Virus record (IMG/VR): IMGVR_UViG_3300042508_000526
Length of the DNA: 64,000 nucleotides
Strand: one strand, 5' to 3'
Origin: a virus
Lineage: Duplodnaviria; Caudoviricetes
Shown here: piece by piece, positions 4,161 to 61,942 of the stretch
How the letters are laid out: every line of letters starts with the position of its first letter
How positions within the stretch are numbered: the first letter of the stretch is position 1
Notes under the pieces: model-generated
Databases searched by the model: none
What the model saw: the letters and a program-made list of their open reading frames with translations, nothing else
What the model was told of the DNA's origin: nothing
Translations under genes and position numbers: made by a program

Positions 4161-4385
4161 TTATTTAGCCTTGTTTCGCTTAACCGCGTCAGTCCACGCC
4201 GCGCGATCAGCATCGGTGATGTCGATGTTTGCCGTGCTGTTGGTCATTGTCCGTAGCACGTTTTTGTTGGTCGTTTCGTTGTACGCCACGTCAAGCGCAG
4301 CTGCTTGCGCAGCGTCGCGATCGGCAGCCTGCACAACAAAATCTTCGTTTACTGTGCTTGAAACACGTACGTAAAAATAAGCCAT
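4161..4385 (-). CDS. Hypothetical protein
   Basis: 74 aa with GGAGG RBS upstream. Confidence 0.7.
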   Translation of the reverse strand: MAYFYVRVSSTVNEDFVVQAADRDAAQAAALDVAYNETTNKNVLRTMTNSTANIDITDADRAAWTDAVKRNKAK

Positions 4386-4398
4386 AAAACCTCCTGTG

Positions 4399-4439
4399 AA
4401 AAAAAGAGGGCGCCGGGGGAACTAGCCCTCGGCGCCCTC
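4399..4439 (-). terminator. Intrinsic terminator
   Basis: GAGGGCGCCG/CGGCGCCCTC 10-bp stem followed by a T7 run on the minus strand. Confidence 0.75.
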
Positions 4440-4464
4440 CATGGCGACGAAACTAATTAGCTAC

Positions 4465-10370: not shown

Positions 10371-10431
10371 GAGAAAAGATCTAGCCCGCCGCGAAGACGG
10401 TCGTCCGTGACCGTCGCCGCGCGCGGGTAGA
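10371..10431 (-). terminator. Long hairpin plus U-tract downstream of the nucleoid-like gene
   Basis: TCTA-CCCGC...GCGGG-C-TAGA followed by TCTTTTCTC. Confidence 0.5.
10396..10415 (-). promoter_or_regulatory. Candidate CsrA-binding hairpin
   Basis: GACGGUC-ACGGAC-GACCGUC; exact match to (A/U)CANGGANG(U/A) with an ANGGAN hexaloop. Confidence 0.55.
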
Positions 10432-16653: not shown

Positions 16654-17103
16654 TTACCTGCCGTCTGTTTCGCAGTAAATCACAAAAGTACAGCCGCATT
16701 GTTGCGCGAGCTTTACAACGTTTGGCGCATACACCGAAACAATTTTTGTTTTGTCGATTTTGTTGGCTGCGAGCAGAGCGAGCAGCCCCATTTTTGCAAT
16801 GCCGCGCCGTCTATATTCCGGATCTACAAAGCATTCGACTGTTTGCGCTACGACCGGGCGTCCCTTGAATTTTTCAGTCCAAGGGCGCGTGCCTACCCAT
16901 CCGGCAAGGACGTCGTCGCACCAAATGAGCGCCAGCGCCATTTCTGGGTGCAGACCGGGTTCGACGTGCAGGTAACGTTTGGTCAGCTCTTTTTGTATTG
17001 AGCTGTCGCTACCCGAATCCGGCCACGAAAGCCGCGACATTATTGCCGCGACGTCGATACATCCTAGTTTATTGATGTCTTTGATTTTGATTACAAATTC
17101 CAT
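16654..17103 (-). CDS. GNAT family N-acetyltransferase
   Basis: Acetyl-CoA motif A ECFVDPEYRRRGIAK; start moved to ATG 17103 (GGAGG RBS). Confidence 0.8.
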   Translation of the reverse strand: MEFVIKIKDINKLGCIDVAAIMSRLSWPDSGSDSSIQKELTKRYLHVEPGLHPEMALALIWCDDVLAGWVGTRPWTEKFKGRPVVAQTVECFVDPEYRRRGIAKMGLLALLAANKIDKTKIVSVYAPNVVKLAQQCGCTFVIYCETDGR

Positions 17104-17126
17104 AGTTGTCCTCCGTGACAACCATG
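17101..17126 (-). promoter_or_regulatory. RBS/AUG-occluding hairpin with CsrA-type loop (GNAT)
   Basis: CAUGGUUGUC-ACGGAG-GACAACUAUG: 10-bp stem with one G-U; loop carries the SD, 3' arm carries the AUG. Confidence 0.7.
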
Positions 17127-17140
17127 AAATTATATCAAAG

Positions 17141-17213
17141 AGCCGGCGGCCGGACTCGAACCGGCGACCTGCTGATTACAAATCAGCAGCTCTACCAACT
17201 GAGCTACACCGGC
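17141..17213 (-). tRNA. trnT: tRNA-Thr(UGU)
   Basis: GCCGGTG acceptor, D arm TAGCTCAGTTGGTAGAGC, GCTGA-TTTGTAA-TCAGC, GGTTCGAGTCC; CCA not encoded. Confidence 0.95.
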
Positions 17214-18050: not shown

Positions 18051-20655
18051 TGTTGGTTAAAAGGAATTGATCGCCCCAGTCCGTTGTGATCGATATTCCC
18101 GGCATTCCTCGTATTGATTCTTCTGCTATAAGTGCGCCTGATTTTAGCAGCAACTCTTTAATTAGCAACCAGTTAGGTATGACTGTTTTGCTGCTATAAA
18201 AATAACGATCTACCGCCCTCTGATTCAACCACCAATAGTCTTTTTTTCTTACAAGGTAGTTTGCGGCTTGCGACCGATTTCTTGGGTGCGGCACAATTGT
18301 TAGCTGGCGGTTATTAACGGCACGACCTAACTCTAGTAACAAGGCGGTATGCGCGTTTTCGTCGGTAACTAACTGATTTAGCGCACAATCTAGCTGAAAA
18401 CTGCTGCCGTACGTTTCTGTTAACCAGCCGGCTAAATCTGACAAAACTGCCCGCGTCATGTTTACACTGCCCGCCGCTATCGTCATGCGCTGTTTTAATG
18501 CCCGCTGAATGTAGGCTGGCAAAACGTGCCTAAACACACTAAAGTCTGCCGCGCCAACAGACGCGCTGCCGGTAATTACCTGCCACCCGTAGCTCGGGGC
18601 GATGGCTGCTGCGGGCTGTGTTATTTTGACAAATATCGGATACGCGTGACACCGCGGTATTACGGTGCCGTAACTCGCGTCGTCGAAGGTACTCGCGGCA
18701 AATAACGGCCAGTCCGCGTTTTCTGCCAGCTCTGCGAGATTGCGACTAACGTGACTGCGGTGCAACGTTGTCGAGTGCTTATAACTGCAGGCTAGTTCGT
18801 TGCCCAGCATTGCCGCCAACGTAAAGGACGCGCCTGACATACCTGTCGCGGTGGGTTCTTTGCGTACAACCGGCGCGATTAAATCTGTGGCAATTGCGGC
18901 GAACACTGTCCATATAAACGCATTATCCGGGCTGGGCGTTAAAAACTGTTTGATGGCCGGCGGTGCAACTGGCGTGGGCTCAGGAAAGGCTGCAGATTGT
19001 TTTTTTGTTTTCGGCAGCATTGTCGGCGTAACTGCGCCGTCATTAGTCAGCTCAAACTGCGCAAAACGAAATACGCCTGCGCGGTCGTCCCAGCCTAGAC
19101 GACTTGAAATGCTAATGAGTTCTGGCTTATTTAACTCAATAGATATCAAGTGGCTGCGTTTGTTCCACATGTTGTCAAAAACGACAAGCTTCTTTTTTGG
19201 CGCCATGTATGCTTGTGCGTACGCCAGCAAGCCCATACCTTCAATACGCTTAGCGCTGTCTGAGAATTCAAATTGCTCGCCGTCGATGTGGATGACGCCG
19301 CTGTATGTTTTGTGCCCGTTATCTTCTTGCACAATTTTTGTGATTGCGATATTGGCCGAACAGATTCTGTGATTTGCGCTATTCCACCAACCGTCACCGC
19401 GCGCAATGACGACGCGTCGGCGGGCAGTCTGTATAGAGCCCAGCGGCACAGCCAACGTCGCATGCGACAGAACCCGATCTGCGAACCCGGCTGAAAAATT
19501 GTCATTCATTTTTTTCAAAAACGGCGCCAGCTTGTCCGGCGATACTGTCAGCCGTGTGGCGAAAGACTGGGCCGCGATTTCGCTCATTGGTTTCAGCGCG
19601 TTATGCAGGCTGACCTGCCACGTTGTCGCCGCGTATCGAATGTTTGTGAGTTGTTTGAGCGGGTTATCTTGTTCTCGTGTTTTTTTGTGCAACGGTGGCG
19701 TGACGCACACATACCCGCGGGCAGTGGCCGCGCGGCTGATCAGCTCCGGCGAAATCGCCGCGCTTTGGAACAGGCGCGTAATCGGCGCAAATGCCAACCA
19801 GTTCTGCCCGTAACTGTTTGCTTCCGGCCCGGTATAGCTCGCGGCAATTGGCAGCAACTCTACGCCGCGTTTCAACTGCTCGCACTGCATTTGCAGCGCC
19901 CACATAGGCGAGTCAACAACGAATTGCGTATTTTTTAGTATCTCCGGCGCCGGCTTTAACATAGCGTCAAGGAGAAAGTAACCGGCTTCGGGTCTTTTGC
20001 GTTTGTATCCGTTAACGGGAATGTAGTTGTACCGCGCGTCAAAATCTTCGCTGTACTGGACGAGCATTGCTCCGGCGAAACGGCCGGGAAGATCGTAGAA
20101 CGGGAACACGATGCTTGCGCCGCCGCGGCGAAAGTTTTTAGGGCACGGCCGCCCTATCTCTGCGCATACTTTGGCTATCTGTTCTTTGTGCGCTACGCCA
20201 ACAAAACCGCGCGCGTTTATTTCGCTGCTTACGCCGAGTTCGCGCAGGCGGCAGGCAATTACGTCGTCGCCGTGGCTCCAAATTTGCGGTTCCGTATCCG
20301 CCCAAAAATCTTGCAGGTGTGCTTGCTTTTGAACCGCCCGGCTATACTCATTAATAGCCGTTGTTTTATCGGCAGCGCTAATCAGCCGTAAATCAACAAA
20401 TTTGTCGATTGCGTCGGCTATGCTTGTATTCCATATTGACGCCGCAAAGGTTATGATATCTCCATGGGCCCCGCATGTATTACAGTGCAGCCAGACGCCG
20501 TTCGCGGCAATGTCATCAAACAAGTACAGCGTGTTTTGATGACAGCTTGGACACGCAACAATATTTGGGAATGACGGATTTTCCGGCGCGACGCCTAATG
20601 CCGATAGGGCGTGCATATGGTGATGTCGGCCGATTAAACAGGTAGGAAACCCCAT
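18028..20655 (-). CDS. Primase-helicase-like protein, apparently catalytically degenerate
   Basis: N-terminal CPSC/CNTC Zn domain; IVFPFYDLPGRFAG DnaG-like segment; Toprim-like and DUF927-like regions with altered motifs. Confidence 0.55.
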   Translation of the reverse strand: MGFPTCLIGRHHHMHALSALGVAPENPSFPNIVACPSCHQNTLYLFDDIAANGVWLHCNTCGAHGDIITFAASIWNTSIADAIDKFVDLRLISAADKTTAINEYSRAVQKQAHLQDFWADTEPQIWSHGDDVIACRLRELGVSSEINARGFVGVAHKEQIAKVCAEIGRPCPKNFRRGGASIVFPFYDLPGRFAGAMLVQYSEDFDARYNYIPVNGYKRKRPEAGYFLLDAMLKPAPEILKNTQFVVDSPMWALQMQCEQLKRGVELLPIAASYTGPEANSYGQNWLAFAPITRLFQSAAISPELISRAATARGYVCVTPPLHKKTREQDNPLKQLTNIRYAATTWQVSLHNALKPMSEIAAQSFATRLTVSPDKLAPFLKKMNDNFSAGFADRVLSHATLAVPLGSIQTARRRVVIARGDGWWNSANHRICSANIAITKIVQEDNGHKTYSGVIHIDGEQFEFSDSAKRIEGMGLLAYAQAYMAPKKKLVVFDNMWNKRSHLISIELNKPELISISSRLGWDDRAGVFRFAQFELTNDGAVTPTMLPKTKKQSAAFPEPTPVAPPAIKQFLTPSPDNAFIWTVFAAIATDLIAPVVRKEPTATGMSGASFTLAAMLGNELACSYKHSTTLHRSHVSRNLAELAENADWPLFAASTFDDASYGTVIPRCHAYPIFVKITQPAAAIAPSYGWQVITGSASVGAADFSVFRHVLPAYIQRALKQRMTIAAGSVNMTRAVLSDLAGWLTETYGSSFQLDCALNQLVTDENAHTALLLELGRAVNNRQLTIVPHPRNRSQAANYLVRKKDYWWLNQRAVDRYFYSSKTVIPNWLLIKELLLKSGALIAEESIRGMPGISITTDWGDQFLLTNSEARDIG

Positions 20656-21838
20656 GACAAATATTCCACTCGATCAGGCACACGACGTCAGCGGTCGCGA
20701 ACTGCACCGGCTAACTACGCTTTTTACGTGCCCGGATTTTGTTAAATCTGCGTCGCAGGATCGCACGCACGGCACCGACGAGTTGCCGCGGCACGTCTAT
20801 GCCGATCAATACAATAAACTTTACCCGTGTCATTCCGCCGCTGCAACGTGGCTCTCCGCGCTGTACTTCGCCGATAAGAAGGCTGAGTTTGCTGAAAAGC
20901 GCGCAAACGAGATCCAAGCCCGCATCCACGGCGCGGCACGTTTCTTTGGTATTTTGGGCTCGGTGACGGAGCTGGAAGAGAAGGTAGCCGCGGCAAACTC
21001 TACTGACCTCAACAGTCTTCCAGACAGCGAGTTTGCCATTGTCTGGTGCGGCGAGAACGGCGCCGGCAAGGAGCGGCATTGGCCGTTGCGTAATGCCACA
21101 GAAGTAAAATTTGCGGCAGCGCATTTTAAAAACTTTCGCGATCAGTTTGTGTTTGCTGACCGTCACACGATTGCAAACAAAATTCTTGAAAAGGCTGCGC
21201 AGTATGACGCGGATGTGTCCGAAGCGGACGGCTCGTTAGAGCTGGCTGCGGGTCTGGGCGCGTGCGCGGCAAAAGTTGCCAGCGAAATGATTAAAGACCG
21301 CGTACGGCTCACTCAGCGCAGCCATGGTGCGCTGGCCAGTGAGTTGTCCAAATTAGCCGCCGCTATCGACAAGAACCCGGAACGGGCTCGCTCAGTCGAT
21401 ATGCGTCTTAAGTTGGCGAGCGCGGTCGATGACTTTGATCGCAGTACTAACCTGCACCGGCTGTACGACGCTGGTGGTTTGCCCCGACCCGAAGAAGTGT
21501 TGTTTGCCATCACGGAGAAGGTAGCGCGCGACTTCATGGAAGAAAACGTCGAGACAACGACGGGTAACGTGTACGCGCTCACGGACTTGGAAAAGCTAGC
21601 AGTTGAAGACGTTCGCGCGTGGCTCGGCGACGAGTTTGCAGACGCTGTGACCGCGGGCGGCGTTTACATGGACCGCGAAAAACTGGCGGCGATTGTGCCG
21701 ACGCTTGACCGCGGTATGGCGTCTATGCTGGATCGGCTTATGTCCGAAAAAAGCGCAGGCGCTGTTGTGAAGGCCGCCGAGGCTAACGACACGCTGCTGT
21801 CGCTTGCGCGACTGCACGAACTGGCTAGCGAGGGCTGA
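20654..21838 (+). CDS. Hypothetical phage protein with a duplicated (Y/W)P-x7-8-A motif
   Basis: LYPCHSAAATWLSALYF and HWPLRNATEVKFAAAHF; AGGTAGGA RBS. Confidence 0.7.
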   Translation: MTNIPLDQAHDVSGRELHRLTTLFTCPDFVKSASQDRTHGTDELPRHVYADQYNKLYPCHSAAATWLSALYFADKKAEFAEKRANEIQARIHGAARFFGILGSVTELEEKVAAANSTDLNSLPDSEFAIVWCGENGAGKERHWPLRNATEVKFAAAHFKNFRDQFVFADRHTIANKILEKAAQYDADVSEADGSLELAAGLGACAAKVASEMIKDRVRLTQRSHGALASELSKLAAAIDKNPERARSVDMRLKLASAVDDFDRSTNLHRLYDAGGLPRPEEVLFAITEKVARDFMEENVETTTGNVYALTDLEKLAVEDVRAWLGDEFADAVTAGGVYMDREKLAAIVPTLDRGMASMLDRLMSEKSAGAVVKAAEANDTLLSLARLHELASEG

Positions 21839-21847
21839 ACAAATCGA

Positions 21848-21921
21848 CGTGGCGTAGAGCAGTCTGGTAGCTCGCCAGCCTCATAAGCTGGAGGCCGTCG
21901 GTTCGAATCCGACCGCCACTA
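21848..21921 (+). tRNA. tRNA-Met(CAU), initiator-like body
   Basis: C1xU72 mismatch, A11-U24 pair, fMet-type D arm GAGCAGTCTGGTAGCTC, anticodon arm CCAGC-CTCATAA-GCTGG; CCA not encoded. Confidence 0.9.
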
Positions 21922-22176
21922 TTCTTCTTTTGCGTTGCCGTCTTCAACGATGCCAAGAACTTCGTTGAAGAATTCTATGCAACGCCTGCCGGCAATGCCG
22001 CTCTTTTCTGTTGCCGGCGGCTGCGCTGGCTGCGCGGCGGGGTCAATATTTTGCGATGTTAATCCGAGGCGCTGGCACTCTTCTAGATACATTTGCCAGT
22101 TTTCGTAATCTTCTCTATCGCGCGGATTTTCGTACGGTACGTATGGGTTATCAAGCAGATGGTCGTTCCAGCCCAT
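21919..22176 (-). CDS. Hypothetical protein
   Basis: 85 aa; stop codon overlaps the tRNA-Met 3' end. Confidence 0.55.
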   Translation of the reverse strand: MGWNDHLLDNPYVPYENPRDREDYENWQMYLEECQRLGLTSQNIDPAAQPAQPPATEKSGIAGRRCIEFFNEVLGIVEDGNAKEE

Positions 22177-22345
22177 TTTTGCGCTTCTTCTTTTTTAGAG
22201 TGCGCAGCTCGCCGCGAATGACAGTCACGGCAAGCGGCGCGGTAACACCGATCTTTACGCGGTCACCGCATATGTCCAGTATCTTCAGCACAACATTGTC
22301 GCCGATTACAACCTCTTCTTCTTTTTTTCGTGAAATTACGAGCAC
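22151..22345 (-). CDS. csrA: Carbon storage regulator CsrA/RsmA
   Basis: MLVISRK.EE.VVIGD...GDRVKIGVTAP..V.VIRGEL; R6 and R44 equivalents retained. Confidence 0.92.
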   Translation of the reverse strand: MLVISRKKEEEVVIGDNVVLKILDICGDRVKIGVTAPLAVTVIRGELRTLKKKKRKNGLERPSA

Positions 22346-25095: not shown

Positions 25096-25116
25096 GCGTT
25101 AACTCCGTTGTAACGC
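25096..25116 (-). promoter_or_regulatory. Candidate CsrA-type RBS hairpin
   Basis: GCGUUA-C-A-ACGGAG-U-UAACGC immediately before the AUG. Confidence 0.45.
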
Positions 25117-25241: not shown

Positions 25242-25321
25242 CCGCCGCCCCGCGCTGCCTAAGAGCATGGAGCCCGCGGGCCACGTGGTACGTGACCCTT
25301 CAGCAGACCGCAGGGCGGCGG
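25242..25321 (-). ncRNA. Candidate structured RNA hairpin
   Basis: CCGCCGCCC/GGGCGGCGG outer stem extended by GCG and CTGC/GCAG pairs; preceded by the same TAGGCTGCG(G)ATC motif as the 24631 hairpin. Confidence 0.4.
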
Positions 25322-38574: not shown

Positions 38575-40473
38575 TTAAGTTGTGCTGTAAACAATTCCAG
38601 TAATCCTCAGTACGCCGACCTCTCCGTATACGTCCGCAGGATTTTCATCGCGGCCTATTGTAAACAGCACCGTATCGCCTTGGCTGACTCCAAACGGCGC
38701 GCTTTCTCGCTGGATGACTTTGTCCATCAGCAGCGAGATTGCCGGCAGCGGCGCGATTGGTGTATCAGCTGAAATTAAACCAATACCCGTGTTATTAGTC
38801 AGCGCTGGCGCGGGCAGTACGCGGTAAGACATGTACAGCGACGGCAATAACGCCGCCTGCTGCGCCGAGCCGCCGCGCCCGAAATACTGAACGCGAACTT
38901 TCATGTTCAAATTGTCGCCGATGTTTTGCCCCGGCACATTGAAACGCACGCGCAACAGAGACGCCTGCCCGTACGGAAAACCGATGTACGGAATATCCAT
39001 GTATAAGCGCTCTACGGTGTCGCTAAGCCTGATAATCTGCGGCGACAACTCGCGCTCGACTAATTGATCTGTATAGTCGATCTGCAACACGCCTTGCTGC
39101 AGCATGATCGTATTAGTCGTGCTCAGCTCTAACGCTTCTTTTTCAGCTGTAGTCAGCGCGCGTTCTTGTACGCCCTTGATGCTGATCTGATTCGATACCG
39201 TGAACGCGCCTTCGGCAACCCAGCCGCGTTTTAATTTCTTACCGGCTACAATTTGTTTGACTGCCTGACCGCCCAGCGCCTCGCCGGCGGCGTATTGCAT
39301 ATTGAGGTCAAGCCGAAGATCGCCTGTTGTGGCCGGCGCGCCTGCGCAGTTTGTGACCACAATCGGGCTTTCGTCGATATCCGGCTCGATGCTGGTTACG
39401 ACATTTCTGTCGTTGCCCAGTAACATCCGTAAAAACACGACAGACAGCCGCATTGTTTCTTCACGCGGGCACTCTTCAACACCCGGCGTAACTGGCGTCT
39501 CTGCGACAGTTGTATCTAACGTCGCCGGCCACGGAACATCGCCGTAGCAGTTGCTCATCCACCAGATGCCATTTGTGTCGCATACGACGAGACCTTGCGC
39601 GCCTAGCGGAACTTCCGTGGCGCCTACATGGTTTTCGCCTTTGTCCCAGAGAACCGCCACCGACTGAATGGGTAGCGGCGGCCATACGTTAGATAGCGCC
39701 GGATGCGCGTTTAAGTTGTAACCGAACAACGCGCCAGCCGGCGCCTTGTTATTAAAAACGCTGTGCGACACCGGCAACCAACCGGGCGTAGTAGCGCTTG
39801 TATCGCTTTCACTTTCTTCGTTGACTGTTATTACGTGCTCATCGCCGGTGTTTGGCGGCTCGTGCGGGCCGGCGGGGCGACAAACCAAATCGAACCGGTA
39901 GTGCGTGTGTTCGTCGATAAAGTCGCGCACGTGCGGCATGACAACAACGCGCGGCACAGTAGAGCACGCATCTTTTGGGCCGAGTACTTGGCAAACAAAT
40001 ACCGACACCGCGGGGCGCTGCTTCACCAGTTTGCCGCATGTTGTGCCGGACAAGTAATAGCGCCCGGGAGCGATCGGGCCTGTGATCGCGTTTTGTAGCT
40101 CCGGCATGTCCACGACGCCGTGCAGCACAACGTCAGCCAGCGTTTCGCCTTTTTTGCGCAAACACATACCGACGCAATCAGACGACGGAAGCACGACGAG
40201 TGTTTGCGACGTCGCGTCTGTTTCTACAGCTGCTTGCGCGCGCTCATAGCGTTTCTCTGTCGAGTTCCAGTAAACCGGATGCCCCGCAAGCACGTCAGGC
40301 GCTACGGTGGCGTCAGTGTCGAAAATAGCTTGTCCGAGCGCAGCGGCGTCAAGCCGGTCGCGAAGGTAGTCGGTACGGTTTTCAAGCGTGCGGTCGGGGC
40401 GCGATACAACGCCAGCCTGCACCGGCTCGCCCGGCGTTACGTGTTTAATATTATGTAGCCAGTTACCGGACAT
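38575..40473 (-). CDS. Tail fibre proximal/anchor protein
   Basis: N-terminal GEPVQAGVVSRPDRTLENRTDYLRDRL resembles myovirus fibre N-termini; position after the wedge genes. Confidence 0.55.
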   Translation of the reverse strand: MSGNWLHNIKHVTPGEPVQAGVVSRPDRTLENRTDYLRDRLDAAALGQAIFDTDATVAPDVLAGHPVYWNSTEKRYERAQAAVETDATSQTLVVLPSSDCVGMCLRKKGETLADVVLHGVVDMPELQNAITGPIAPGRYYLSGTTCGKLVKQRPAVSVFVCQVLGPKDACSTVPRVVVMPHVRDFIDEHTHYRFDLVCRPAGPHEPPNTGDEHVITVNEESESDTSATTPGWLPVSHSVFNNKAPAGALFGYNLNAHPALSNVWPPLPIQSVAVLWDKGENHVGATEVPLGAQGLVVCDTNGIWWMSNCYGDVPWPATLDTTVAETPVTPGVEECPREETMRLSVVFLRMLLGNDRNVVTSIEPDIDESPIVVTNCAGAPATTGDLRLDLNMQYAAGEALGGQAVKQIVAGKKLKRGWVAEGAFTVSNQISIKGVQERALTTAEKEALELSTTNTIMLQQGVLQIDYTDQLVERELSPQIIRLSDTVERLYMDIPYIGFPYGQASLLRVRFNVPGQNIGDNLNMKVRVQYFGRGGSAQQAALLPSLYMSYRVLPAPALTNNTGIGLISADTPIAPLPAISLLMDKVIQRESAPFGVSQGDTVLFTIGRDENPADVYGEVGVLRITGIVYSTT

Positions 40474-40480
40474 CCTGTCC
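40468..40480 (-). promoter_or_regulatory. CsrB-type ACAGGAUGU hairpin over the start codon
   Basis: GGAC-AGGAU-GUCC including the AUG, preceded by GGAGG. Confidence 0.5.
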
Positions 40481-58644: not shown

Positions 58645-61600
58645 TTAGACCACTAAGTGCAGCTCAATGTTATTGAGCGGCGCCGGGACAACGAGATCGA
58701 GAACAATTTCGATTCGGTCCTTTAACAGCGGGTGGATTTGCAGTCTGCGAATCGTGCCGTCAACCAGCTGCGAACCCAGCTCTTCGGTGAAGCCGTTGGC
58801 CTTGAGGAAGTCGATGATCGCCGTGACTTCGAACCGCAGACGTCGCACCATACCTTCTTGCGCGTTGGTGCGGCCGATGAACGGACGCAGGCGGCGCAGG
58901 AACAGGTAGGACATCGAGTCCACGTTGCGGCGGATCATCTCTTCCCGACGATTCAGGTCGAGGTTGTCCGTCGTCAGCGCGTGCCGCGTGTGCGGCGTGC
59001 CGTCCTTGTCTTCTGTCACGATCCACACTCCGGCCTCAGCCATACGGTTGAGCTGAGTTTCGTTGAAGTACTTATACGACCGCGTGTAATCATCAAAACC
59101 GGCAACCTCGACGTTGGTCAGCGGCTGGTGGGGGACAACGCCGCTCACCAGACCAGCCAGCGCTGAAGCCAGATAGAAACCGGGCTGCAGTGTGCCAGCT
59201 TCGCCAACCTGATCCGGCCACACGGCGCAAACCCGGCGATTCGACAGCGAGCCACCCTGCTGCGCAATGTCTTCCGCGACCTCGTTGCGGTTACGGTTGT
59301 GATAGATCTCTACGCGTTGCGGCTGCGTTACCGCGGCATCAGCGCCGGAGTACAGCAGCAGCGTCGACTCAGACAGTACCTGATCGACAACGTACTCTTC
59401 ATACTGCTCGTCGCCGAAACCGTCGACCGAGAAGTTGTAACGGACGATGTCGCCGGGGCGAACGTCGTTCGTGATGAAGTAACCGTTGCCCGATGTGACC
59501 GTCAGCTTTGTGTACTGCGTGTTGGTCGCATTCGGATCGTCGGCCAGTGTCGCGAGAACGGGCGAGTCGATTTCTGTACCGAGCACGCCGTTAACCGGCA
59601 CGCCTTCGCCAGCCACCTTGACGACCGGGTGCGCCTTGAGGCTGAAGAAACCGGCCTTCCAGTTATTGGCGTACTCATTCGATTCGGCGCCGATGTGCGC
59701 AGCCCACAGATTTTGAATCTGCCGCTCGAACGTCAGCGGAACGAGGTTGTACATGTCGTCACGACCCTTGATGCGCTCAAGCACCTGCACCCAGCTGTCG
59801 AGGTTCGGGCCGATGTAGCGATTTTCCGAATCAAAACGATCCGGCTCGCCGACGGCCGTGTACTTCACAACTGTACCGTTGCTGTTAGAGAGCGCCTTAT
59901 AGACGCCCCACTTCAGCGGGTTATCCGGGTGCAGCTGGCCCTTGATCACGTCGAGATCAGCAACGTCGCTGATCGAGTTGACCTGATCGGCCAGCTCGCT
60001 GAGCCACTCGCGGTACTCGACGTAAACCTTGCCGCCCATGACGGGCAGCGGCTGTTCAGCACCAGCGCTTGTCCACTCAGGGTGGTAAGCGATGATGCCT
60101 TCCTGCACGCAGACTTGCGTATCTTCAAGCCAGTAGTTGGTCTCCGGCGCGTAACCGATACGATTACGCGAGACCTGAATGTCGTCCTTGATGTACAGCA
60201 TGAGGTCCATGTCCTCGCCGCTGATCAGGCTGACAGTCGCGCCGGTGGCTGTTGTACCGCCCACAGGTGCGGCAGCAAACGTTACCGTCGGCGCTGTGAC
60301 GTAACCCGAGCCGCGGTTCGTCACCGTTACGGCTACAACCTTGCCGGCTGTCGAACCCGTGCCGAGCACCGCGGTACCGGTCGCCGTTGTGGCGCCAATA
60401 TTACCGCTTGTCGGGGCCGAGAACGTGACGGTCGGGGCTGTGACGTAACCGGAGCCGATACCGCCGGCCGGAATGTTCACGAAGCCAACCTTATCAACGG
60501 GCAGGCCGTCTTCAGACAGCAGGCTGGTCGGCAGGTCATCGCGAAGGATGAGCTTGCGCACCGGGCCAGCTTGGCTGGAGTTAACCGTGATGTACCACTT
60601 GTCGCCCTTGCGGAGGCCAGCAACAGCGTCCGAGCTGCCGCCAGTCGCGCCGAGAAACTTAACCTTTACGCCGTTCGTGCCAATCGCCACCGAGATGGCG
60701 TTGGAACCTTCACCGTCGCCGACAACCTCGGTCGGACCAGAGAAGTCGAGGCCCTTGGCCGTCTTCACGGTGATTTCCGGAAGCTGCGCGAAGGTGCCGC
60801 CCTTTGTGCACTCGATGATGTAAACGTCGTTCTTAGCGCCGGCATACTTGCCGAGAATGTCAAGCTGACCAGCGACGCCGTTGACAGAGTCTTCAGTCGC
60901 GTAAACGCCGTCGGCATCCGAAACGGCGATCGCCGGCTCGAACGTCTGCTTTACAATGAACTGCCATTTCTGACCAACAACAAAGTTGTCGCTCGTCGAG
61001 CCGTTCGAGAAGCGGACCGACAGGCCGCGGGTGCCGATGAACGTAACGCCCGAAGCGGCATCAATTTCATTCGGCGTGATTTCCGCTTGATCGTCCGTTC
61101 CGCTGGCCGACGTTACGCGCAGCCGCGCAGCGTTGCAGCCAGAGATTGTGCTTTTGATAACTTCAACGGTATAGGTTTCGTTGACGTAGCCGTCAACAAG
61201 ACCGCTGTAGGTGTTGGCGCCGGCGTCTCCGCCGTCCAGAACAGTAACGGCAACAGCGTTGTCCGTACCGGCAATCTGAAAATTCGACGCGCCTGCCGCT
61301 GCAGTGACGTCTACGCCGCTAAGATCTGTTGCGGTGTAAGCGTCTTCATTATTAACGTCGGCTACGGCCGGAAGAATGCGCGACGGGACGAGGTCGCTGG
61401 CAAAGCCAGTAACGTATGTCTCAAGCACAGTCTCTTCGCAGTCGTTGTCGGCGCTCACAACGCGCAGCTTGACAACGTCACCGAGCTGAACGTCGCGGTC
61501 ATAAAACACGCCGCTACGCGGGTACGAACCGCCGTTCGCTTTGAACGACAGGTTCGACGATTGAATCCAATTCGATTTGCCGGGCACAGCCGTAACAGTT

Positions 61601-61896
61601 GTCGCGTTGTCGCCGACCGTGTGCGAGTAGTACTGCAGCATGGCGTCGTCGATGTAGACCTTTACATACGACGGATCGACGCGCGAGCCAGCAAGACGCT
61701 GCGGCCACGGATAGCATGTGTCGTTTAAACGATCGTAGACGCCGAGTAAGCAATCGGGCTTCTCATTCGCGTCGCCATAACGATGAAGAACAGCGTGCGG
61801 GCCAGCAATGTGGGCGCGCAGCGGTTCCGTGATCTCCGTCGGGACGATCCGGAACTCTTGAAAAACAAGAACTTGGGGTTTTACGTAGCTCGACAT
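58645..61896 (-). CDS. Tail sheath protein
   Basis: 1083 aa; C-terminal sheath domain (LAGLVSG...PLTN...LNRMAEAGVWIV...RHALTT...IRRNVD...PLNNIELHL). Confidence 0.85.
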   Translation of the reverse strand: MSSYVKPQVLVFQEFRIVPTEITEPLRAHIAGPHAVLHRYGDANEKPDCLLGVYDRLNDTCYPWPQRLAGSRVDPSYVKVYIDDAMLQYYSHTVGDNATTVTAVPGKSNWIQSSNLSFKANGGSYPRSGVFYDRDVQLGDVVKLRVVSADNDCEETVLETYVTGFASDLVPSRILPAVADVNNEDAYTATDLSGVDVTAAAGASNFQIAGTDNAVAVTVLDGGDAGANTYSGLVDGYVNETYTVEVIKSTISGCNAARLRVTSASGTDDQAEITPNEIDAASGVTFIGTRGLSVRFSNGSTSDNFVVGQKWQFIVKQTFEPAIAVSDADGVYATEDSVNGVAGQLDILGKYAGAKNDVYIIECTKGGTFAQLPEITVKTAKGLDFSGPTEVVGDGEGSNAISVAIGTNGVKVKFLGATGGSSDAVAGLRKGDKWYITVNSSQAGPVRKLILRDDLPTSLLSEDGLPVDKVGFVNIPAGGIGSGYVTAPTVTFSAPTSGNIGATTATGTAVLGTGSTAGKVVAVTVTNRGSGYVTAPTVTFAAAPVGGTTATGATVSLISGEDMDLMLYIKDDIQVSRNRIGYAPETNYWLEDTQVCVQEGIIAYHPEWTSAGAEQPLPVMGGKVYVEYREWLSELADQVNSISDVADLDVIKGQLHPDNPLKWGVYKALSNSNGTVVKYTAVGEPDRFDSENRYIGPNLDSWVQVLERIKGRDDMYNLVPLTFERQIQNLWAAHIGAESNEYANNWKAGFFSLKAHPVVKVAGEGVPVNGVLGTEIDSPVLATLADDPNATNTQYTKLTVTSGNGYFITNDVRPGDIVRYNFSVDGFGDEQYEEYVVDQVLSESTLLLYSGADAAVTQPQRVEIYHNRNRNEVAEDIAQQGGSLSNRRVCAVWPDQVGEAGTLQPGFYLASALAGLVSGVVPHQPLTNVEVAGFDDYTRSYKYFNETQLNRMAEAGVWIVTEDKDGTPHTRHALTTDNLDLNRREEMIRRNVDSMSYLFLRRLRPFIGRTNAQEGMVRRLRFEVTAIIDFLKANGFTEELGSQLVDGTIRRLQIHPLLKDRIEIVLDLVVPAPLNNIELHLVV

Positions 61897-61900
61897 GCGT

Positions 61901-61916
61901 CAGGCCTCCGTGCCTA
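61901..61916 (-). promoter_or_regulatory. CsrA-type hairpin over the sheath SD
   Basis: UAGGC-ACGGAG-GCCUG, 4 nt before the AUG. Confidence 0.6.
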
Positions 61917-61942
61917 AAATTTGTGTGCGGTATGGCGTTCAG

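Follow-up and report, generated by a model that had tools for sequence, protein, structure and literature searches.

The presence of a csrA gene in a phage genome raises the question of which mRNAs its product reads, those of the host or those of the phage itself. Such alleles were counted in 30 of 2517 phages, ~1% of phage genomes (PMC7366521), and a paper of 2025 still described their role as untested (PMC11879866). They are usually supposed to manipulate the host, and the locus described here provides a concrete alternative with named targets. The gene was located at 22151-22345 on the minus strand of a 64,000-nt stretch of DNA (the window), which corresponds to bases 16270-80269 of a 203,206-bp virus record with a terminal overlap of 127 bp. 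A total of 228 genes were called from open reading frames in the record, and 222 of these were on the minus strand. The regulator and conserved, covarying hairpins of the binding type were found together in one viral genome, with the hairpins on the genes of the most abundant virion proteins. From the sequences, the phage probably controls its own particle production through CsrA and these start hairpins.

The residues of CsrA that contact RNA are situated in beta1 and beta5, namely L2, L4, R6, R44, and I47 in E. coli numbering. The predicted CsrA/RsmA-family RNA-binding protein of the phage (64 aa, GTG start) matched the Pfam CsrA profile PF02599 at 2.9e-17 and 62.8 bits (cut-off 27) over profile positions 1-48 of 53, and its residues 1-49 were aligned with the solved CsrA, RsmA, and RsmE chains at E ~3e-7. 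L2, I4, R6, K7, V40, V42, R44, and L47 occupied the E. coli RNA-contact positions, and L2, V3, R6, V30, G33, R44, and E46 were invariant across ten CsrAs of the clade. The claim of an earlier note on this DNA, that the RNA-contacting residues were kept, was borne out by the Pfam match and the alignment to the solved chains. Judged by these matches, the ORF is a true member of the CsrA family, and its full-length alignment to solved dimers suggests an interlocked homodimer with two RNA-binding surfaces. Some clade members appeared to carry multiple csrA copies; in G012 and G014 the gene was found in two separate places, and in G007 two matches fell within one 184-aa frame. The CsrA of the most divergent close relative (G005) had a 22-aa insertion after beta1. 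The gene followed the tail-fibre genes directly and in their orientation, a position that gave no sign of early expression. A sigma-70 scan for a csrA promoter gave nothing above chance, and no CsrA-type hairpin was found in the csrA start region. The last 26 nt of csrA (..NGLERPSA) overlapped the start of an 85-aa ORF (21919-22176, minus strand, beginning MGWNDHLL..) in another frame at 22151-22176. Because GLERP and MGWND, the two overlapping ends, were both kept in at least two relatives (G002, G004), their sequences suggest that csrA is translationally coupled with the product of the 85-aa ORF.

The enrichment of candidate sites was evaluated in those called genes in which an ANGGAN hexamer began 20 to 9 nt ahead of the start codon (n = 55), and a stem was accepted when the hexamer was closed by at least 4 pairs, either Watson-Crick or G-U. 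In the flank-swap null, each left flank was paired in turn with the right flanks of all other sites, which kept the SD and the position-specific composition. ANGGAN SD hexaloops with a stem of at least 4 bp were observed at 10 of the 55 sites vs. 0.70 expected under this null (P = 2e-9), and 8 remained vs. 0.20 expected when only Watson-Crick pairs were allowed. Start calling cannot create such stems because it used SD strength and not structure. Enrichment over SD-preserving shuffles, a check proposed in the earlier note, was clear for the exact hexaloop in the MFE fold (8 vs. 0.17±0.38, with hexamer and start codon fixed), but the loose test, which counted GGA in any MFE loop of 4-8 nt, was only weakly positive (14 vs. 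9.9±3.5). Loops of 4, 5, 7, and 8 nt and the other GGA registers in the hexaloop were near the 2% background. Hexaloops with GGA at positions 3-5 amounted to 10/55 if position 1 was A and to 0/83 otherwise, and the non-coding strand gave 4/237. The site rate was 18% at the SD, 14% at the start codon, 8% for 60 nt upstream, and 2% elsewhere. The upstream gaps of the hairpin genes were not longer than those of other genes.

The composition of the loop was similarly restricted. In six genomes, 81 of the 84 GGA-centred hexaloops at translation starts (96%) began with A, vs. 39% for unstemmed GGA. The closing pair was C-G in 56 of the 84 start-region hexaloops, and the second loop base was often C or U. 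Compared as sequences, the loop and its closing pair are CANGGANG, the core of the RsmE/CsrA consensus. Ribosome binding hardly accounts for an A two bases before GGA whose neighbour is a C or U unable to pair with the anti-SD. A second class of sites, with d=-4 (ANGGAU-G) and d=0 (AUGGAN), placed GGA on the start codon and comprised 25/178 sites in csrA-positive genomes vs. 0/160 in csrA-negative genomes. The GGA of this class cannot serve as an SD because of its place on the AUG. Moreover, several stems contained G-U pairs and the arm sequences varied freely between genes, which points to a structure in the sense-strand RNA and away from a DNA operator.

These results bear on the explanation that the hairpins act without any protein, with short stems that display or partly hide a strong SD to tune initiation or stabilise the mRNA, and with a likeness to CsrA sites that is coincidental. 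Several observations would fit: many sites coincide with the strong GGAGG SD of a highly expressed virion gene, the G of GGAGG partly accounts for the C-G closing pair, ACGGAGG serves as a plain SD in the sister group, and the looser loop test was only weakly enriched. However, only the hexaloop with GGA at 3-5 and A at 1 was enriched, the ANGGAU-G class has its GGA where anti-SD pairing is useless, and the enrichment was absent in T4, Arash, RSL1, and the csrA-less sister phages. Coincidental likeness is hence regarded as unlikely.

Five sites were named in the earlier note. All five were present in the sequence, although the site of the 125-aa gene proved weak and the site at 10396 resembled a terminator. 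The ACGGAG hexaloop, which was said to cover three SDs, was found as described at the sheath and GNAT genes, but at the 125-aa gene it needed a bulge and was weakly conserved. The SD hairpin of the sheath gene, UUAGGC-ACGGAG-GCCUGA (61900-61917, minus strand), belonged to the MFE fold; its 4 Watson-Crick pairs were extended by outer pairs, and its loop began 15 nt upstream of the AUG at 61896. GGC-A[C/U]GGAG-GCC was kept in 33 relatives, and one divergent relative had the compensatory UCAGC/GCUGA. The sheath gene itself (58645-61896, minus strand) encodes an unusually long protein of 1083 aa, in which only residues ~870-976 matched a tail-sheath family. An inserted domain is likely in this protein because residues ~470-555 matched domains known from fibre and head-closure proteins. 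The start hairpin of the GNAT acetyltransferase gene (17096-17131, minus strand; Pfam 7e-7 for the assignment) presented the ACGGAG hexaloop on 15 contiguous pairs. Its MFE fold was a ~23-bp helix (-21.8 kcal/mol, z -6.6) in which the AUG (17103-17101) was buried in the 3' arm of the stem, and the hairpin in the nearest relative had 14 bp with changed pairs. A tRNA-Thr(UGU) gene (17140-17213, minus strand) was situated directly upstream of this hairpin and a TATAAT box.

At the fibre-like 632-aa gene, the earlier description of a hairpin over the start was correct; its loop is AGGAU in this genome and a hexaloop in the relatives. The hairpin here was GGAC-AGGAU-GUCC (40468-40480, minus strand) over the start codon, with a GGA triloop as the MFE structure and the SD GGAGG directly 5' of it. 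In the relatives, the fibre start was GGAC-AAGGAU-GUCC, and its hexaloop AAGGAU matched the SELEX core ACARGGAUGU. Distant csrA-positive relatives had UGCC-AAGGAU-GGCA, GCUC-AAGGAU-GAGC, and a 7-bp ACGGAU version, and the csrA-less relatives had no hairpin over the fibre AUG. The candidate at the 125-aa gene, GCGUUA(C)A-ACGGAG-UUAACGC (25096-25116, minus strand), was the weakest of the five. The ACGGAG hexaloop required a bulged C, the MFE fold instead had the loop AACGGA with a bulged U, and the site was identical in the nearest relative only and was not kept in two others. The intergenic hairpin GACGGUC-ACGGAC-GACCGUC (10396-10415, minus strand), 80 nt upstream of the next start, had been described as a perfect site away from any RBS. 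Its 7-bp stem and loop ACGGAC were confirmed, but it formed the tip of a 19-bp helix (10380-10431, -35.5 kcal/mol, z -4.8) and is probably terminator-like or a stabiliser rather than an ordinary site. The nearest relative had GGUC-AUGGAC-GACC at this position.

According to their sequences, about 13-15 genes probably carry a single CsrA-type hairpin at the start as a candidate CsrA site. Those in the window were the sheath, GNAT, and fibre-like 632-aa genes and, weakly, the 125-aa gene. Beyond the window (in window numbering), hairpins were found at the gene starts 66961 (308 aa, HK97-fold major capsid protein), 67589 (195 aa, the upstream neighbour and a head-module gene), 66000 (128 aa, site on the AUG), 85975 (118 aa, site on the AUG), and 130834 (glycosyltransferase), and further at 97255, 123708, 128616, 156045, 157710, and -8147. 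The Atlas neighbours of the 308-aa protein were named capsid proteins at 0.98, and all 50 of its best structural matches were capsid or encapsulin chains (Z 6-8.2), obtained with a low-confidence model (pLDDT 52). On the basis of this all-capsid match list and the Atlas neighbours, and with a poor model, the 308-aa gene is assigned as that of the HK97-fold major capsid protein. Most target genes were unnamed by PHROGs and Pfam. The earlier expectation that mainly tail assembly and a toxic enzyme are controlled did not hold; the best conserved targets were the major capsid protein, the neighbouring head-module gene, the sheath, and the fibre gene, and the ten or so others were mostly unnamed.

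The conservation of the hairpins was explored in relatives from IMG/VR, which numbered 34 for the sheath gene and 65 for the capsid gene. In five relatives covered by whole genomes, the SD sites numbered 9-14 each (P from 1e-6 to 1e-10). Orthologous starts retained the hairpin while the sequence of the stem changed. The stems of the capsid gene among these starts were GGAAC/GUUCC, AGAAC/GUUCU, GAAGAC/GUCUUU, GCAC/GUGC, UAAC/GUUA, and CGAUC/GAUCG, and those of the upstream head gene were AGAC/GUCU, UUAGAC/GUCUAA, UAAGAC/GUCUUA, and GUGAAC/GUUCAC. AGGC/GCCU and UCAGC/GCUGA were found at the sheath gene, GGCAU/AUGCC, GCGC/GCGC, and GGUGC/GCACC at a 251-aa gene, and GGAC/GUCC, UGCC/GGCA, and GCUC/GAGC at the fibre start. 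For the capsid-gene hairpin, evaluated in 34 distinct sequences, 85% of the cells were paired vs. 65% in shuffles, and 26 cells were doubly changed vs. 6.8±2.2. Its covariation score was 0.43 vs. 0.12, a value that was reached by 0 of 500 shuffles, and all slid controls were lower. Stem covariation in relatives, also raised in the earlier note, was thus confirmed by the capsid-gene score and by compensatory stems at four further genes. In one subclade, the capsid and sheath stems were only 2-3 bp.

The distribution of the hairpins was then compared with that of csrA. All five close relatives carried the gene, as did six other members of the clade. It was absent from three clade members; these were 90-100% complete, and their capsid proteins were 55-60% identical to that of this phage. 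Three further csrA-positive genomes had 19/114 SD and 6/32 start sites (P = 1e-11), 9/60 and 3/13, and 4/40 (P = 0.005), respectively. The three csrA-negative relatives had SD sites at 2/74, 1/79, and 0/95 and no start sites, and the unrelated csrA-less controls were at the null (T4 1/60, Salmonella phage Arash 1/56, Ralstonia phage RSL1 2/82). With the SD and start bins summed, the values were 122/758 for the csrA-positive genomes (nine), 3/330 for the related csrA-negative genomes (three), and 4/276 for the unrelated controls (three). Enrichment was present in 9/9 csrA-positive genomes and absent in 3/3 related csrA-negative genomes and 3/3 unrelated controls. At the orthologous capsid, sheath, and head-gene starts of the csrA-negative genomes, the ACGGAGG SD was kept and the closing stem was absent. 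The sister phages with neither csrA nor hairpins therefore represent a natural control. In the capsid tree, the three csrA-negative genomes formed one side of a single well-supported branch (100/99). Because the csrA-less relatives fall on one branch, the co-occurrence of csrA and hairpins counts as a single evolutionary event. That a freshwater jumbo phage clade acquired csrA and evolved the hairpins on the same branch, as a self-contained viral regulon, is a reading to which we give even weight for and against.

Of the 59 genes that could be detected in every one of the six complete csrA-positive genomes, eleven in addition to csrA were undetectable in the csrA-negative trio, and most of these core genes were unnamed. 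Another clade-specific factor, either the product of one of these genes or a nuclease acting on GGAG, might therefore recognise the hairpins. No recognised RNA-binding family was found among the eleven genes sharing the presence/absence pattern of csrA, and only the known specificity of CsrA predicts this exact loop, which makes such a factor very improbable.

A different explanation retains CsrA as the reader and assigns the role to the CsrA/Rsm protein of the host, with the phage copy acting mainly on host mRNAs or sequestering the sponge RNAs of the host and thereby making free CsrA activity independent of host physiology. The sites match the generic CsrA consensus and could be bound by any family member, and for CsrA homologues from other phages and from plasmids, the host is the presumed site of action (PMC7366521, PMC9928087, PMC11879866). 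Furthermore, in 668 kb of sequence surrounding csrA on 44 unrelated viral contigs, the sites were at the null, with 7/269 at the SD and 0/67 at the start. The absence of own-genome sites in these contigs would be in line with a host reader; it also indicates that such sites are a speciality of this clade rather than of phage csrA generally. However, the csrA-less relatives had no hairpins on the same genes with the SD kept, which is unexpected for a host reader unless their hosts lack CsrA. A host reader is accordingly considered improbable. The phage rather than the host CsrA is the reader that we infer, together with repression as the effect and a titration threshold; activation or mRNA protection may be the effect instead.

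For the phage CsrA as the reader, the following mechanism would apply. The phage would make a working CsrA-family RNA-binding dimer, and ~13-15 phage mRNAs would each offer at the start a single hairpin of 4-6 bp with the hexaloop A-N-G-G-A-N. In some hairpins the loop, ANGGAG with a C-G closing pair, would contain the SD; in the others, ANGGAU-G, it would contain nucleotides immediately before and within the AUG. Once on the loop, CsrA would keep the hairpin clamped in competition with the 30S subunit, and the amount or timing of translation would be set in this way for the capsid, head gene, sheath, fibre, GNAT, glycosyltransferase, and several unnamed proteins. Rising late mRNA would titrate CsrA and produce a threshold-like onset. 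Judged from loop and protein sequences, it is somewhat probable that the phage CsrA dimer binds the start-hairpin loops and competes with the 30S subunit, as CsrA/RsmE does on bacterial targets. Control of dosage or a threshold is favoured over the timer holding back tail assembly that was proposed before, because the control would fall on the most abundant virion proteins and csrA is without an early sign. If the regulon is indeed self-contained, the virus would use CsrA to gate its own morphogenesis, possibly through a titration threshold, and would do so independently of the host Csr system, perhaps in hosts without one.

Close parallels come from bacteria and from other phages. RsmE/CsrA binds the hcnA SD hairpin (PDB 2JPP family), with the SELEX consensus RUACARGGAUGU. 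The phage hairpins similarly have an A-N-G-G-A-N hexaloop closed by C-G on a short stem over the SD or AUG, and the phage protein keeps L2, the L4 equivalent, R6, and R44. Unlike in RsmE-hcnA, a virus supplies the regulator as well as the candidate targets, most of these mRNAs have a single site, and a sponge RNA was not found. In the CsrA-FliW-flagellin (hag) switch of Bacillus subtilis, CsrA on an SD hairpin ties the translation of an abundant structural protein to its assembly. The phage likewise has SD hairpins on the gene of a very abundant structural protein, to which binding is putative; by contrast, its genome is without FliW, and the assembly checkpoint is a feature of hag. T4 RegA is a phage protein that binds several mRNAs of its phage where translation is initiated, and the MS2 coat protein binds the replicase operator hairpin that holds the start codon. 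The proposed phage protein on own-mRNA starts would resemble RegA in its several mRNAs and MS2 in the start-codon hairpin, whereas the protein families and recognition motifs are unrelated and T4 had no ANGGAN-hairpin enrichment.

Regulated CsrA targets usually carry at least two GGA sites, which are bridged by the dimer. Second GGA sites within -70..+40 showed no general excess beyond the hairpin site, and the fibre start had GGAGG plus AAGGAUG, i.e., two GGA. No GGA-rich sponge RNA was found (the highest intergenic GGA density was 2.8 per 100 nt), no Csr/Rsm sRNA family was detected in the window, and no FliW was detected in the genome; an antagonist may be encoded by the host. Other mobile elements also carry their own CsrA. 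Escherichia coli phage PTXU04 encodes the CsrA homologue gp28, the knock-down of which led to small plaques (PMC11879866), the plasmid homologue RsmQ acts on the host (PMC9928087), and a Legionella ICE carries CsrT, as cited in PMC7366521. This phage resembles them and the other phage csrA alleles in having a CsrA of its own; in contrast, the papers on gp28, RsmQ, and other phage csrA propose host manipulation and describe no own-genome site set. A CsrA site set within the own genome of a phage was not found described in a full-text literature search. If confirmed, translational gating by a captured bacterial global regulator would join the known ways of timing late phage genes.

No isolated close phage was found, and the nearest were Vibrio and Salmonella phages with ~28% identity across half of the sheath. 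A 58%-identical CsrA (P0006) at NCBI was labelled 'carbon storage regulator [Sphingorhabdus sp.]', which is probably that of a related phage binned into a MAG. The MAG bins with capsid relatives were spread across six phyla, so the Sphingorhabdus label is a weak host hint. A further candidate CsrA-type site, cgcc-AUGGAG-ggcg at 4433-4446, was rejected as an alternative fold within a strong intrinsic terminator (4380-4446, minus strand; stem GGAGGGCGCCG..CGGCGCCCUC then U7), and this terminator was just upstream of a 74-aa gene (4161-4385). A DUF3800-VIII RNA motif (25244-25319, minus strand; Rfam 43.1 bits, gathering score 40.2) was located upstream of the 125-aa gene, within a gap of 256 nt. 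A tRNA-Met(CAU) gene (21848-21921, plus strand) adjoined the plus-strand gene 20654-21838, one of only six on that strand. DNA of the 203-kb phage was contained in many lake-water metagenomes.
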